A stretch of DNA of 64,000 bases from Dictyostelium discoideum (lineage: Eukaryota): contig CM000155.2 of NCBI GenBank assembly GCA_000004695.1, positions 2,048,001-2,112,000 on the forward strand, read 5' to 3'. The notes under the pieces are model-generated. The model did not search any database and had not been told where the DNA came from. It saw only the letters and a list, made by a program, of their open reading frames with translations. This document shows positions 1 through 10,465 of the stretch, piece by piece; position 1 is the first letter of the stretch; the number at the start of each line of letters is the position of its first letter. The position numbers and the translations under genes are program-made.

Positions 1-1842
1 CACTTCTTGATACTCTAAAAACTCTTTTGGTAGTGTAGCTTCGATTGGAGGTTGTATTGGCCAATTTCCACTGGTCAACACATAGATATTCATCTCTATG
101 GATTTGAAGTTCTGAGTCATTGGAGAGTCTCTAAATGAATTCATAATATCATTACTTAACTCGATGTCTTTAAACATCTCCTCCAACTTTGCAGTGAACG
201 TCGTACCACATTCAGTCTTTAATTTGGAAATCATTGATTTCTCAGCATCGATCGAGGTTGATTTATCCAAGAGTAAACGTTTTGATAGATCTTGTTTATA
301 GAATGCTTCAAACACATCCTTGCCTTGAATATAACGGAAGAGGATCAACGACTTGTTCAACACGGTCTCTAATTCCTCTTCAGACATTCTCTTTCCACCA
401 ACTTTTAGCTTTGAATCTATGAATCTTGCGACTAATTCGGCGGGTTTGTTTTGCTTGGTATTGATAAAGTATTCGAATGACTCTTTCAATGCGTAGGTCA
501 ACAATTCGTTCTTTGAGAATGATTGACTCAATATTCTATCCAATCTGTCCTTGTAGTCTAAAAGATCTTGAATTAACGTTGCCTCTTTCTCTTTATCATT
601 CAACATTTGAATACCAGTTTGCTTGATATAACTTTGCCATGACTCTTTAATCTTTTTAATTTCACCAACGCTATTCAATAGTTGATAGAGTTTACCTAAA
701 TCCTCTAACCTATCGCCATTCACCATTGCATTGAAACCTTTCTCCAAGATAACATCCACATGTCTCTCTATCAATTGTCTATCCAACACTGCCATCAATT
801 GCTTCTTTGTCGATTGCTCTAAATATCTCATTAATCTCTCACCTTCTTGATTTAATCTTTCACAAACATACTTTAAATACATTGGTGTTTCAATTTCATT
901 AATCTTACTATTACCTTCCATATCATAAAATCTATTTGTTTCTTTAATAAATTCAATTTCAAATTTTGTATAAATCTAAAAAAAAAATAAAAAATAAAAA
1001 AAATTAATAAATTAATAAATAATAAATAATAAATTGGTTTAAACCAAACTTACATTTAATGATGATAACATTTTAACTAAACTATGTATTAAATCTCTAT
1101 CAATTTCATCACCTTCTCTTTCACATCTAATTGAATATAATAATGAATCGATTGTTTTTCTTTCTAAATTTGATTGTTGTGATAAATTATTACCAAAATA
1201 AAATAAACCTAAATCCCAAATTGATTTAACCGTATTTGAATTTTGAATAACATAAGTTCTATCTAAATATAAAAATATACTCCTAATCATTATCTGTGTT
1301 TATAATTGTTTAATTATTAATAAAAAGTTAATTATTATTATTATCATCTATTTGTTTATTATTTATTTATTTACCATTTGATTTGTATGATCTTTCCAAA
1401 TTGAATTTATAGATTTTAAGAAAATGATTGGGTCAGATGACATTGTTAAAACTAAATGTTTTATAGTAAGAGTTATATGTTTTTCAATTTGTACCGATAT
1501 TTTATTATATAGGTTCGATGCTAATATTTTATCAAAACATAAGTTTTCTACCATTTTATATAATTCCTCTTGTGTTAATGTTGTTGCTTGCTTCATATTG
1601 ATTGATGTAATAGCTGAACTTAATTTATTCCATGATGAATCTTCATAGTTATCTGGTGTTTTTGGTATCTGTTTTAAATTTTTAATAACCAATATCTTCT
1701 TTGCTGGTGGTGTACCTGCTAAACTATTCGTTAATGGTTTTTTATTATTATTATTTATATTATTAACATTATTATTATTATTATTTAAATTATTATTATT
1801 ATTATTATTATTATTATTGTTATTGTTATTATTAAAATTCAT
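1..1842 (-). CDS. Cullin-4-like protein, N-terminal and middle part; 3' end runs off window. Exons (minus strand): 1375..1842, 1054..1293, <1..975.
   Basis: Translation of exon 2 reads IMIRSIFLYLDRTYV...SIWDLGLFYF, which matches the cullin-4 helix 'QMIMIRSIFLFLDRTYV...SIWDMGL'. The long exon (1..975) has cullin-repeat-like sequence (YLKYVCERLNQEGERLMRYL...). The N-terminus is poly-Asn. Donors GTAAAT and GTAAGT and acceptors CAG/TAG preserve the frame across both introns. Confidence 0.8.
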
Positions 1843-1852
1843 TTTTATTTTT

Positions 1853-1883
<31 letters not shown>

Positions 1884-2587
1884 TTATCTGTACAGAAAAA
1901 AAAAAAAAAAAAGGTTCAATGAATTGACAAATTTAATTAATGCAATTAATTTTTTTTTTTTTTTTTTAAAAAAAGAAAAAAAAAAAAAAAAAAATTTTTA
2001 TTGATAAAAATGTTCAAATTTGACCTAAAAAAAAAAAAAAAATATTTGCTTTTTTTTTTTTTTTATTTTATTTTTCATATTTTTTTTTTTTTTTTTTTAT
2101 AAACAATTATTTAATTTTATTTATTTTTAATATGAATTTAGCATATAAAAATAGACCAATCAAAAATACACAAAATCATATAAAATATAAAAAAAATGAA
2201 TATAACCATTCTGTTTTTTAAATTTTTAAATTTTTTTTTTATTTTTTTTTAAATCTTAATTTTATTTTTTTCGGTCAATAATTTTATTTTTAGAATTTAA
2301 TTATCTACCATTCATTTTTTTTATTTTAAAGAACAATGAGTAGGGAATAGATTTTTATAAAAAAAAAAAAAAATTGGTTTGTTTAATTTTTTTTTTTTTA
2401 AGTTTTATAAATTTCTTATTTTCATTTATTAATAATTTATTTTTTAAAAAAAAAAAAAAAAGATAAATAAATATGTGGACATTATAAAAAATTTAAATTA
2501 AATAGTAATCAGTTTCATTTTTTTTTTTTTTTTTTTAATTTTTTTTTTATTTTTTTGTTTTTAATAATCATAATTGATTTTATTATT

Positions 2588-3160
2588 TTATTTTTTTGAA
2601 AAATAATAAAAAGCAACAAAGAAATCATAAACCATACAAAAAGTTGGATACCAATATGGAGTCTTAGTGGTTGCAACATGGAAAAAACTATGATGTAATA
2701 AATCCCAAATTGCATGAATTAAATAACCATATACAATATATTTTTGACCCTTTTGTAAAGCATACAATGCACAGCCTCCAACCAATGCTGAAACAGCTAA
2801 ATCAAACATATATTCGAATTGTGTTACTACTGAATTTGATGAAAATGCGAATGTAATACCTGCACATGCTAAATAAATTAAAAAAAAAAAATAAAAAAAA
2901 ATAAAAAAAATGAAAAAATAAAAAAATAAAAATTAATAAATTATTTAATTAATAAATAAATAAATAAATAAATAAATTCTACTAAATTTTTTTTTATTTT
3001 TTTTTTAATTTTTTTTAAATTGTGTGTTCATACCTGCTAAAATTACAATGTCAAAATGGAAAGCGAAACGATGATTTGATTTGTGGAATAAAACAAATGC
3101 AACAATAGCTAAAACAGCCAAAACTAGGCCATGTTGATCTCCTGTTGAAACAATTAACAT
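2588..3160 (-). CDS. Hypothetical small (~132 aa) four-helix membrane protein; 2 exons, complement(join(2588..2858,3034..3160)).
   Basis: ATG at 3160. Exon 1 encodes MLIVSTGDQHGLVLAVLAIVAFVLFHKSNHRFAFHFDIVILAG with a GTATGA donor. Exon 2 (after a CAG acceptor) continues in frame as ITFAFSS...MFDLAVSALVGGCALYALQKGQKYIVYGYLIHAIWDLLHHSFFHVATTKTPYWYPTFCMVYDFF. Hydrophobic segments suggest TM helices. No family recognised. Confidence 0.5.
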
Positions 3161-3473
3161 TTTTTATAATTATAATTAATTATTTGATTATGGTGTGTGT
3201 AAATTAAAATGTTGAAAGATATTTTTAATAAAAAAAAAATAAAAAAAAAAAATAAAAAATTGGAAGATGATTAAATTTTTAAATTTCATTTTTTTTTTTT
3301 TTTTATTTTTTTTATTTTTTTTTTATTGAAACCCACCACCAAATCATTATTCCTTATTTCAATCAAAATTAAACAGAATTTTTTTTTTTTACTTTTTTTA
3401 CTTTTTTTTTTTTGTTGTTTTTTTTGTAAATATTTACACTTTACCAAATTTGGGAAATAAATCCCACTATATA

Positions 3474-3527
<54 letters not shown>

Positions 3528-3589
3528 GAAACTTTCTATTTAAATGAGTAAAAGATGACAAAGAATTAATAATGGATGGTGTCGAAATT

Positions 3590-3790
3590 GTAAAAAAAAT
3601 CAATTAAAAATAGTGCAATTGAAAAAGTATTTGGTATAGTTGGTGTACCACATATGAATTACAAGCACAAGGTTTTGGATTTTTTGGATTTCGTAATGAA
3701 CAAAGTTGTAGTTATGATGATGCAGGTTTACCAGGATTTTGTATGACAGTTAGTGGTCCTGGTGTAGTTCATGCATTGGCAAGTGTATTT
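3590..3790 (+). pseudogene. Degenerate fragment of a thiamine-pyrophosphate enzyme gene (2-hydroxyacyl-CoA lyase / acetolactate-synthase-like N-terminal TPP domain); frameshifted, no complete ORF.
   Basis: Two adjacent frames read SIKNSAIEKVFGIVGVPH and ELQAQGFGFFGFRNEQSCSYDDAGLPGFCMTVSGPGVVHALASVFNE. These resemble the HACL1/ALS N-terminus (..IFGIVGIPV..ELA.AAQ..GI.YIG.RNEQAA.YAA.A.GYLTGRPGVCLVVSGPG.IHAL.G..NA). The fragment is about 70 aa, is interrupted by a frameshift, and is flanked by direct repeats AATGAGTAAAAGATGACAAA at 3543 and 3792. Confidence 0.5.
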
Positions 3791-4080
3791 AATGAGTAAA
3801 AGATGACAAATAATTAATATATTTACATTTTTGAAAAAAAAAAAAAAAAAATGGTTTCTTTGAAAAACAATATTTTAAATTATTTTTGTTTTTTTTTTTT
3901 TTTTCTCCACATTAATTAAAAAAAAAAAATTAACAATTTGTAAAGAAAAATAAAAAAGATTTTTTTATTTTTTTTTATTTTAATTTAAATTTCTCCTAAG
4001 AGATGTGATAATTAAAAAAAAAAATTTTAAAAAAAAATTAAAAAAAAAAAAAAGGCGGGAAACTATAACTCACTCATACA

Positions 4081-4405
4081 ATGGCTTTATCTCTTTATTA
4101 TGATGAAGATGATGACGAAAATGAAAATGAAAACAAAGATAAACCAAATAATGATTTTAAAAATCAACAACAAATAAATACATCAAAAACCACTAATAAT
4201 AATAATAATATTAATAATAAAAATAATTATAATAATAAATTCAATGATGATGATATATTTAATAATGATAAAATTATAACCAAACCAAGAGTAACAACAA
4301 CAACAACAACTACCAAAAATACATCAACCAATTCAAATATAAATAAAACCAAATTTAATGATGATGATATATTTGATGATGAAGATGAAGATAGTAATAG
4401 TAATA

Positions 4406-4443
<38 letters not shown>

Positions 4444-7347
4444 GATACAATAATAACAAATGATTATAGATATCAAAAAACAGTACCATTTTCATCATTT
4501 TGTGATTTAATGAATAGAATTATTAATGATACAAAGATTAGTAATAAAAAGAATTATTTAGAGAAATTTATGAATCATTATAAAGATGAACCAAATAATT
4601 TTTATCAATTACTTAGATTAATATTACCACAATTGGATAAAGATAGAAATAGTTATGGATTAAAAGAGAAAACATTGGCAAGATTATATGTTGAACTATT
4701 GAATATATCACCGGAAAGTGTTGACGCAATGAGGTTATTAAATTGGAAGAAATCAACCAATGATGAAATTGGTGGTGATTTCGGTACTGCTGTTTATTTA
4801 TCGTTAAAGAATAGATGTAATAATGATAATGGTAGAATTAAAGTCTCAATGGGTGATATCAATGAATCGCTAGATCAACTAAGTCAACCATTAACAGATA
4901 AGAAAACAAAAGTTTCAATCTTAAAAAAAGTATTACGATCAACCACAGCACAAGAACAAAAGTGGTTTGTACGTATCATTCTAAAAGAGATGAAAAATGG
5001 ACTCTCTGATAACATCACTTTAAAATTCTTTCATCCTGATGCAATCGACCATTTTAATATAACTTCAAATTTAAGATTAGTATGTACAAATTTATTTTAT
5101 ATGACACAATCAAAACAAAAAGAATTAAAAGATAAACAAAAACTTGAAGAAAAAGAAAACCTTTTAAAACAACAACAACAACAACAAAATGATTTAGATA
5201 TTTATAAATTAGAAATTAAATTATTTAATCCAATAAAGCCAATGTTGGCAAATAGACAAAGTATTGATAATTTATCAATGATATTGAATAGTGCAATTTC
5301 GGCAACACAATTTGTGGTTGAAAAGAAATTTGATGGTGAAAGAATTCAAATTCATAAAGATGGTGAACAGGTTAAATACTTTTCAAGGAATAGTAATGAT
5401 TCAACCGGTATATATGGCTCAATGTTTACACCAATTGTTAAGGAGTGTGTTTTGGCCGAGAGATGTATATTGGATGGTGAGTTGATTGTATGGGATTCCA
5501 TATCACAACGATTTGAAGATTTTGGTAATTTAAAAACATTGGCATTGAATAAGGATGGTATTTCAGGTAGTGGTGATCCGTTGGGTATAAATTATGGCAA
5601 ACAACTTTGTTTCATTGCATTTGATATTCTATTTGTAAAAGATCAAAGTGTGATGAACTTACCATTAATGCAAAGATTAATGCTATTAAAACGTTGTGTA
5701 ACAATAAAATCAAAACAATTTGAAATCTCTGAACAGACAACTGTGAATTCAATTTCCCAAATCATTAGTTTACTAGAGAGTGCGATCATCAATCGTGAAG
5801 AAGGTTTAATGTTAAAGAATTTACATTCCCTCTATGTACCTGCTGAAAGAAAAGATAAATGGGTGAAAATTAAACCAGAGTATATAGATGGCATGGGTAA
5901 TGGTGCCGATGATTTGGATTTGGTTATTATTGGTGGCTACTATGGCAGTGGTTTGAATAGAAGGGGTGGCACAATCTCCCATTTCATGTTGGGTGTACCT
6001 TTTATAGCAGATTCCACCGACACTGACATTGATGATGAATCAACATTTGATAAGAATGTTATATTCTATTCATTTTGTAAAGTTGGTTCAGGCTATACCG
6101 ATATACAATTGAAATCCCTACAAAAGGATTTAGACCCACATTGGAATAACTTCAGTACAAGTAAACCACCATCAATAATTCAATTGGCTGAACCATTCAA
6201 AGAGAAACCTGACGTTTGGATTGATCCAAGAGTTTATTCAAAAGTACTTCAAATTAAGGCATCCCAAATCGTTGTAACTGATAAATACAAATGTGGCTAC
6301 ACTCTTAGATTCCCAAGAGTATTAAAAATTAGAGATGATAAAGGTTGGAAAGATTGTTGTAGTCATGAAGAAATCATTGACCTCTTTACAAACTATTCAA
6401 CAAATTTAAATTTTAAAAGAGATCATGAATATGGTGATGGCAGTGGTGGGAAAAATAAAAAATTAAAGAAATCAAAGAAAACTACAAACCAACTATTAGC
6501 CGATAGTGGGTTAAAAGTATTATCAATATTTCAAGATACTGACACAAGTGGTATTATACCAACTCAAAATATATTTCAAGGTATTGAAATTTGTGTTATT
6601 AAAGGTAGTAGTGGGGAATACACAAAATCAAAATTAGAAATTATGATTGTTGAAATGGGTGGTTCAAAAGTTCAATATCCATCAAGAAACACAAATTATG
6701 TAATCTCTTCAAAAGAGGTTGTAAAAATTCAAAATTTAATTCAATCTGGTTTCATTGATATCGTATCTTTTAATTGGATTGTAGATTGTTATAATGAAAA
6801 AAGGTTAGTCCCATTAGGTCCTAAATATATGATTTTCTCAACTGAATCAACAAAGAAAAGATTTCTTTTAGATTCTGACCAATTTGGTGATTCCTATATA
6901 AACGAAACTACTGAACAATCTTTAAAAGATTCTTTTAATCAAATTGATAAATTAAAATTAAAAAAACAATTATCAATCAATTCTACTACTACTACTACCA
7001 CTACTTCTATTTCAAAATATTTTTCAAATTGTTGGTGGTCATTATTTAAAGAATTTACATTTTATTTAGATTTATATCAAGTTGTTGGTGAGAAGTCAAC
7101 ATTAATTGAAAATAATAATTTAGAATTATCAAATTTAAATATTCAATTTTATGGTGGTAAAATTTCAATAGAATTTAATAATAAAATCACTCATGTTGTT
7201 TTAGATTCTTTAGATTTATCAAGAATTACTTTTATTAAAAATAAAATCAATTCATTATCATTACCAATTCAAATTGTTACTACAAATTGGATTCAACTTT
7301 CAATTAATAATTATTCAATTCAACCAATTTTAGAAATTTTAGATTAA
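4081..7347 (+). CDS. lig4: ATP-dependent DNA ligase IV (single exon, 1088 aa)
   Basis: The adenylation motif KFDGERIQIHKDG matches Lig4 'KLDGERMQMHKDG' (KxDGxR), followed by FSRNSND. The OB-fold and conserved ligase motifs follow. Two C-terminal BRCT-like domains (6540-6800 and 7000-7300) are typical of ligase IV rather than I/III. The N-terminus is low-complexity N/T/D-rich. Confidence 0.85.
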
Positions 7348-9971: not shown

Positions 9972-10465
9972 CAATAAATCTTCAAAAAAAAAAAAAAAAA
10001 TAATAATAGATTTTTGGTGGTTCCAAAAAAAAAAAAAAAAAAAAAATAATAATAATAATCAAAAATTTTTGGGGTTAAGTTGAGAAACAAAAAAGAAAAA
10101 AACAAAAAGGAAAAAAAAAAATAATAACAGAATGACAAATTTGTCAGATGGAACCACAATGATAGGAAAAAAAAAAAAAAAAAAAATTAGATTTTTTTTT
10201 TTTACAATAGGGGGTTATTACAATAATTAAATTTTTTATTTTTTTTTTTATTTTTTATTTTTTATTTTTTATTTTTTTTTATTTTTATTTTTTTTATTTT
10301 AAATTAAAAAATTGTATTTAAAAAAATTTTAATTTAATATATTCATTTTTTTTTTTTTTATCCAACATTATAATAATTTTATTCATTCAGTATTACTTCA
10401 TTATCAGTACAACAAAATTTTGTTAAAAAACATTCTATAATAATAATAATTAAAGTTCATCAATA

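Follow-up and report, generated by a model that had tools for sequence, protein, structure and literature searches.

How did some 215 bp of enzyme-like DNA, enclosed by a 32–34-nt direct repeat, come to lie in the spacer between two unrelated genes, and what has become of it since? The locus is part of a 64-kb window—the whole stretch of DNA that was analysed, 23.7% GC overall—whose genes identify Dictyostelium discoideum. A reading of this DNA made from the sequence alone had described the piece as an orphan fragment of a thiamine-pyrophosphate (TPP) enzyme gene, and had offered two explanations for it: a gene relic, or a short segment that had been duplicated and transposed, with its direct repeats as the mark of the event.

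A repeat-bounded fragment between lig4 and a DUF6010 gene

The divergent spacer in question is 920 bp long (window positions 3161–4080), and separates a gene for a DUF6010 protein from lig4, the gene for DNA ligase IV, which is DDB_G0292760 (PMC9234386). The flanking spacer is 13% GC, versus 30% in the region of the fragment, and the setting is thus AT-rich and intergenic, between unrelated genes, as the sequence-only reading had it. The 20-bp direct repeat is real, as well. The exact 20-mer AATGAGTAAAAGATGACAAA occurs in two + strand copies, at 3543, where the first had been placed, and at 3791, one position before that given for the second; an exact search of the whole 64-kb window found no third copy. 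A repeat search extends the match to 32 nt (3540–3571 versus 3788–3819, spacing 248), of which 30/32 are identical and two differ; with one 1-nt indel allowed, the repeat becomes 3537–3571 versus 3786–3819 (32–34 nt). The same fragment and repeats are present, identical, in an independent assembly, GCA_054883475.1 (locus L001), and are therefore no assembly artefact.

The DNA between the repeats matches the Pfam family TPP_enzyme_N (PF02776; E=2.6e-6, above the gathering score), and its top matches among solved structures are chains of 2-hydroxyacyl-CoA lyase and oxalyl-CoA decarboxylase (best E=9e-12), which bears out the N-terminal TPP-enzyme identity that had been proposed for it. The spacer has no Rfam match. 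The features of the locus are collected in Table 1.

Table 1. Features of the lig4–DUF6010 spacer and its flanking genes (window positions)
Feature	Position	Strand	Remarks
DUF6010 protein gene, DDB_G0292764	2588..3160	-	135 aa, two exons, intron 2869-3033
Poly(T) tract	3478..3526	.	49 nt, 10 nt upstream of the insertion site
Left copy of target-site duplication	3537..3571	+	TATTTAAATG-AGTAAAAGATGACAAA-G-AATTAATA
hacl1-derived segment	3564..3794	+	Parent -8..+253 relative to ATG; from blastn and alignment
A-run with +1 insertion and GC>AA versus parent	3592..3599	+	First frameshift; window allele only
Site of 13-nt deletion	3650..3651	+	Parent ATTACACCAATTG; original frame restored; window allele only
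ATGATG replacing 24 parent nt	3717..3722	+	Net -18, in frame; common to all filled alleles
Right copy of target-site duplication	3786..3819	+	TATTTAATG-AGTAAAAGATGACAAA-T-AATTAATA
DNA ligase IV gene lig4, DDB_G0292760	4081..7347	+	1088 aa

A T-run occupies the same place as the poly(T) tract in two loci that lack the fragment (L003 and L008, below), and the tract is therefore native spacer DNA. It is 12 nt shorter in L001/L009, an assembly otherwise identical to the window; this is either a real length polymorphism or a homopolymer difference of sequencing or assembly. An A-run lies just downstream of the insertion site.

Several further observations concern the surroundings. Between the identifiers of lig4 (...760) and of the DUF6010 gene (...764) lies an unused even one, DDB_G0292762, and this could be the name of an existing dictyBase model or pseudogene for the fragment. 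The lig4 product differs in length from lineage to lineage: 1088, 1104, 1116, 1118, 1122, 1153, 1164 and 1234 aa. When three versions are aligned (window 4081–4480; L003:1868–5329; L004:1938–5306), the longer ones add residues and the alignment stays unbroken; low-complexity Asn/Thr runs near the N-terminus are a likely place for this variation. A neighbouring cullin gene is represented by two models, of 157 aa and 629 aa, in lineage ACTFIZ (L003:7152–9735) and by a single product of 776–802 aa in other assemblies. The split models are probably an annotation split.

The parent gene

The 47-aa open stretch of the fragment, used as query in an exhaustive HMMER search, gave as its top match P0001, a dictyostelid-like HACL with 65% identity to that stretch. 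P0001 as query led to P0072 and, through the cluster of P0072, to the parent: D. discoideum hacl1, which encodes 2-hydroxyacyl-CoA lyase (HACL1_DICDI, DDB_G0292402, Q54DA9; protein P0072/P0190). A word-indexed homology search with the repaired 84-aa translation found no protein. The parent protein is 580 aa long, starts MDGVEIIAKSIKNSAIEKVFGIVGVPITPIAYELQAQGVGFFGFRNEQSCSY... (MDGVEII), and has all three TPP-enzyme domains; codons 1–84 of the 580 are represented in the fragment. In nucleotides this is 253/1743 of the coding sequence, or ~14%, rather than the ~10% at which the fragment had been put. The one intron of hacl1 starts at about +476 of the coding sequence, and the copy ends at +253.

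On the parent side, the aligned segment corresponds to positions 9993–10253 of L002 and 2993–3253 of L005. Fragment and parent (L005/L002 hacl1) are 95.7% identical over 230 aligned nt, with 10 substitutions. Donor origin is unambiguous for 3572–3785; the ends of the segment, 3564–3571 and 3786–3794, are microhomology common to the target. The fragment contains a D. discoideum-specific GGA where the hacl1 genes of 'cf. discoideum' and D. firmibasis have GGG.

The intact parent lies outside the window, 146–152 kb away on the same contig. Within the window, tblastn with an approximate human HACL1 sequence as query found no other hacl1 exons or coding DNA; the fragment is not the visible part of an intact gene whose further exons the sequence-only reading had missed.

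Two gene-like features at the locus were considered and rejected. The repeat is not the true 5' end of a gene (MSKDDKELI...): the parent protein starts MDGVEII, and the 16-nt repeat core AGTAAAAGATGACAAA does not occur in the parent locus or in the 10 kb to either side of it. Nor is GTAAAA, after AATGA, the 5' splice site of a hidden intron, for the parent continues in frame there with GCTCAATCAAATGG, and its only intron is that at about +476.

Empty and filled sites

Orthologous spacers were located through the neighbouring gene: a homology search with the DUF6010 protein, and the members of its cluster, led to them. The hacl1 piece is absent from the DUF6010–lig4 spacer in five lineages: 'Dictyostelium cf. 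discoideum' ACTFIZ (L003) and ACTFIY (L008), D. citrinum (L012), D. firmibasis (L013) and D. dimigraforme (L004). The site is filled in the window, in L001/L009, and in ACTFIW (L010) and ACTFIR (L011), both of which are labelled D. discoideum.

The ACTFIZ spacer is 671 bp long, versus 920 bp in the window, and the 249-bp difference matches the 248-bp insertion. It reads ...GAAACTTTTTATTTAATGAGTAAAAGATGGCAAATAATTTATATGTTT...: one clean repeat copy, TATTTAATGAGTAAAAGATGGCAAATAATTTATA, no hacl1, and flanks that continue as they do in the window. At both positions where the two copies in the window differ, the right copy has the ACTFIZ state. ACTFIY lacks the fragment and has a single, partly deleted copy of the repeat, TATTTAATTAGTAA/TATTTTACATTTTT, and the spacers of D. 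citrinum, D. firmibasis and D. dimigraforme have neither fragment nor recognisable repeat copy. A single copy at the empty site means that the repeat is duplicated target: it is neither a part of hacl1 nor a mobile unit.

With the parent elsewhere on the chromosome and empty sites that have one repeat, the second of the two explanations offered from the sequence—a short duplicated segment, its direct repeats marking the event—turns out to be the right one. 'Transposed' is apt if it means a copied segment at a new site; it is not apt in the transposon-mediated sense, as the hallmarks of transposons and of retroposition are missing.

The D. citrinum spacer is 1503 bp long, and some 700 bp of it (region of L012:1280–2320), at 31% GC, may have been inserted there independently; a Pfam search with the open stretches of this ~700-bp insert gave nothing significant. 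The D. citrinum spacer also contains a long AAT-repeat tract that is called as a 104-aa poly-Asn 'gene'.

Decay of the copy

A single frameshift had been thought sufficient to read through the fragment. Two changes of frame are needed, +1 in 3592–3599 and −13 between 3650/3651, and together these make an excursion to another frame and back; the frame-shifted stretch contains stops. The ACTFIW and ACTFIR alleles have a 12-nt deletion at the A-run site instead of the +1, and they retain the 13 nt that the window allele has lost, so the 13-nt deletion must postdate the insertion. Besides the 12-nt deletion, these alleles have insertions of 1–4 nt and roughly twelve substitutions of their own. All filled alleles have just two changes in common: the replacement of 24 nt by 6/7 nt, which therefore arose at or soon after insertion, and TATTAA>TATTTA at the right junction.

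Divergence between alleles is 7.8–8.2% in the insert, with 5 indel events, and 5.6–9.5% in the flanking spacer. The similarity of these values indicates that the insert has been under no constraint, and it rules out hypermutation. At every amino-acid difference between fragment and parent, the D. purpureum protein agrees with the D. discoideum parent, and all of the amino-acid changes are thus on the fragment side. Taken together—similarity to the parent, truncation and disabling lesions, an intact parent elsewhere, and no coding constraint—the fragment has what is expected of a pseudogene fragment. The frameshifts, the deletions and the mostly amino-acid-changing substitutions show the copy to have decayed neutrally; to judge from sequence it is non-functional, with no sign of any role.

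The repeats have changed as well. In ACTFIW and ACTFIR (L010:1780–2260 and L011:1770–2250, − strand) both copies read ...ACGAGTAAAAG; in the window both (at 3545 and 3793) are ...ATGAGTAAAAG, and T is the state at the L003 empty site. That one lineage has the same T>C change in its two copies suggests either that a short tract was converted between the 32-nt repeats or that there were two parallel hits.

The junctions

At the left junction, target ...CAAATAATTAATA meets donor ...AATAATTAATA|ATGGATGG. The sequence common to both sides is AATTAATA, an overlap of 8 nt with the left repeat copy (3564–3571, equal to the hacl1 leader) and of 11 nt with the right copy. At the right junction, donor ...GGTGTATTAAATG|CTC meets target ...TATTTAATG|AGTAAAAG, and the joined sequence reads ...GTGTATTTAATG|AGTAAAAG. 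Here the overlap is TATT, if it is to be exact, or else the first 9 nt, which match donor TATTAAATG at 8/9 positions. T/A run lengths at this junction differ between alleles, so the original right overlap can only be bounded, at 4–9 nt. Both tips of the duplicated segment—left and right alike—coincide with sequence shared with the donor.

How often such overlaps arise by chance was estimated from random donor/target pairings drawn from the same sequences. The left overlap (8–11 nt) has a chance probability of 0.07–0.2%, or 0.6–1.3% when donor ends are drawn from the AT-rich flank only; for at least 8 exact nt, the values are 0.2% and, under the AT-rich-flank null, 1.3%. AT-rich, low-complexity sequence inflates chance matches, and under this stricter null the chance of one at the left junction rises to 1.3%. 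For the right junction the probability is 0.7–2%, that of a 9-mer with no more than one mismatch being 0.7%.

Read directly, the sequence has no poly(A) tract at either junction. The insert is hacl1 from end to end, with no terminal inverted repeat or element-derived sequence, and the inverted repeats that were detected are pairings of A/T homopolymers only. Insertion of a transposable element was rejected on these grounds: there are no terminal inverted or long terminal repeats, and nothing is element-encoded.

Position of the donor and age of the insertion

In GCA_054883475.1, one contig (JBTAPE010000034.1) contains both the fragment and hacl1, in opposite orientation and 152 kb apart, the fragment at ~1,053,37x (+) and hacl1 from 1,206,246 down to 1,204,419 (−). 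In GCA_054859355.1 (JBTAPG010000061.1) they are 146 kb apart, again inverted. The two loci are spaced similarly in lineages with empty sites (ACTFIY, ~161 kb; D. firmibasis, ~139 kb), and the donor was therefore already that close when the insertion took place. Intact hacl1 occupies its own syntenic locus, 140–160 kb away, in all of the lineages checked. The D. discoideum genome is ~34 Mb in size, and for a donor drawn from it at random we estimate a chance of ~1% of lying this near in cis.

How old the insertion is can be judged from the lineages that have it. Over ungapped columns (window 660–6660 versus L008–L011), ACTFIW and ACTFIR differ from the window lineage by ~4.1%, and ACTFIY, labelled 'cf. 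discoideum', by 4.2%; the tree of this locus is nearly a trichotomy, and species labels do not track divergence here. In a neighbour-joining tree of 2554 ungapped columns, the filled lineages group together in 145/200 bootstraps, with ACTFIY almost trichotomous with them and ACTFIZ outside. This tree and the distribution of filled and empty sites together place the insertion later than the divergence of ACTFIZ and shortly before the deep split within D. discoideum. Since support for the filled clade is only 145/200, the empty site in ACTFIY may be ancestral, may reflect lineage sorting, or may have arisen secondarily, when recombination between the repeats removed the insert.

How the copy was made

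The insert is a DNA-level copy of hacl1 −8..+253; its donor has been retained in cis, the target has been duplicated, and there is microhomology at both junctions. How this came about is less certain. The likely answer, we think, is microhomology-primed templated insertion at the DNA level—MMBIR/FoSTeS-like, or by repair of a staggered break—followed by neutral decay. A retained donor paired with an empty site, microhomology beyond chance at two junctions, and a donor close in cis all point this way. The target 3' DNA end, ...AATAATTAATA, would have left its own template and annealed, by 8–11 nt of microhomology, to the hacl1 leader, some 150 kb off on the opposite strand of the same chromosome, to be extended there by ~260 nt. 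The extended strand would then have re-annealed to the target through TATT(T/A)AATG, 32–34 nt behind the point of departure; by returning behind it, the strand would have caused the intervening target to be duplicated, and so have created the direct repeat. A break with ~32-nt 3' overhangs, both tips of which primed and captured the copied strand, might have given the same product by a different route. Synthesis-dependent microhomology-mediated end joining is a further route to templated insertions. We infer the mechanism from the junctions of one old event, the bases of which later mutated, and on the available evidence a replicative template switch and the repair of a staggered double-strand break cannot be told apart.

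Other origins must be set against templated insertion. A free hacl1 DNA fragment might have been captured by end joining at a staggered double-strand break, with no donor-primed synthesis, and fill-in of the overhangs might have produced the target duplication. Capture would leave the same structure, with duplicated target on both sides of an insert, and classical end-joining genes are present in Dictyostelium (PMC9234386). We consider capture unlikely, nevertheless: random ligation does not predict microhomology of 8–11 nt and 4–9 nt exactly at the tips of the duplication, nor does it predict a donor in cis, ~150 kb away, for which a random donor has only the ~1% estimated above; and a stagger of 32–34 nt is unusually long for duplications made by fill-in. 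Retroposition—reverse transcription of a truncated hacl1 transcript and its integration by a TRE-type non-LTR retrotransposon—would explain the repeat as the target-site duplication of that element, and the start of the copy, only 8–11 nt upstream of the ATG, could be near the start of transcription. Poly(A) should then be found at a junction, and it is at neither; hacl1 is represented by its 5' end, and target-primed reverse transcription yields 3' ends. According to PMC3159450, moreover, TRE5-A integrates ~50 bp upstream of tRNA genes, and a tRNA scan found none within 12 kb of the insertion; the same paper reports that the D. discoideum genome is without processed pseudogenes. All of this makes retroposition very improbable.

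To the remaining possibilities, that hacl1 once stood here and was mostly deleted in situ, or that the locus is a tandem or rolling-circle array of a 248-bp unit in which the repeat serves as linker, we attach almost no credence. Until the empty sites were seen, 1.13 tandem units were apparent, and both repeat ends match hacl1. The empty sites change the picture: in ACTFIZ, and partly in ACTFIY, what had passed for a linker is single-copy sequence native to the spacer, and this eliminates tandem, rolling-circle and re-integrated small-circle models (1.13 x 248 bp) alike. As for the in-situ relic, the first of the sequence-only explanations, the orthologous spacer is empty in five relatives, tblastn found no other hacl1 exons in the window, and intact hacl1 is found at a conserved, separate, syntenic locus 140–160 kb away in every lineage examined.

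Templated insertion raises the matter of why this spacer was the target. The poly(T) tract and the A-run downstream make fork stalling, or a fragile site, plausible, although this is speculation. A bolder idea is that the divergent lig4–DUF6010 spacer, with its very long poly(dA:dT) tracts, is a recurrent insertion hotspot at which collapsed forks are restarted by microhomology-primed copying of nearby genes, the D. citrinum insert being perhaps a second case, or else that transcription from the divergent promoter takes in the fragment and gives rise to antisense or small RNAs against hacl1; we mention it as an outside chance. Should templated insertions prove frequent across the genome, the lineages of Dictyostelium would supply a natural series of them, each dated.

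Comparison with known systems

If we read the junctions correctly, the locus provides a natural templated insertion complete with its donor, empty and filled sites, its two junctions and a pair of alleles that have decayed independently, in a host in which processed pseudogenes are reported to be absent and small-scale structural mutation is little described. It suggests that gene-fragment 'orphans' in Dictyostelium spacers can come from microhomology-primed copy-and-paste at the DNA level, and it gives annotators a reason against calling a gene at the hacl1 fragment. It reveals neither a new kind of element nor a new function.

Templated insertions by microhomology template switching (MMBIR/FoSTeS) are described mainly from yeast, human disease and cancer genomes (for instance in PMC8421209 and PMC11724301). 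The hacl1 insertion is like these in that a stretch was copied from a donor that is retained, with microhomology at two junctions; in that the donor is nearby in cis, and can be inverted; in that mobile-element features are absent; and in that the copy has a small complex change (24 nt to 6–7 nt), with one base altered where the left microhomology ends. Unlike them, it has a clean target duplication of 32–34 nt, and it is fixed, old and germline-equivalent in a wild amoeba lineage rather than somatic or experimental. The copy is longer, too, than the very short templated inverted duplications reported at yeast breaks, which are mostly ~5–34 bp (PMC11724301).

Closer to home, small pieces of the coding or UTR sequence of other genes have been inserted as new introns in D. 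discoideum, in two cases (PMC4683709). The organism is the same, and short pieces of genes are again found inserted elsewhere, but those pieces are within genes, act as introns, and are reported to have no short direct repeats around them, whereas the hacl1 fragment is intergenic and has a long flanking duplication. With the processed pseudogenes made by non-LTR retrotransposons, the hacl1 insert has in common a flanking target-site duplication; it differs from them in being the 5' rather than the 3' part of its gene, without poly(A) and without a tRNA target.

The fragment is most simply described, perhaps, alongside duplicative (unprocessed) pseudogene fragments, for it copies part of a functional gene, has frameshifts and has drifted neutrally, and its parent is intact. 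Such fragments usually come from segmental or tandem duplications in which flanking DNA is copied too. In this case, in contrast, only hacl1 −8..+253 was copied, to a place ~150 kb away, and with duplication of the target. A duplicative pseudogene fragment made by templated insertion belongs to a known class of structural mutation, and what is unusual about this one is only the completeness of its record and the length and cleanness of its target duplication.
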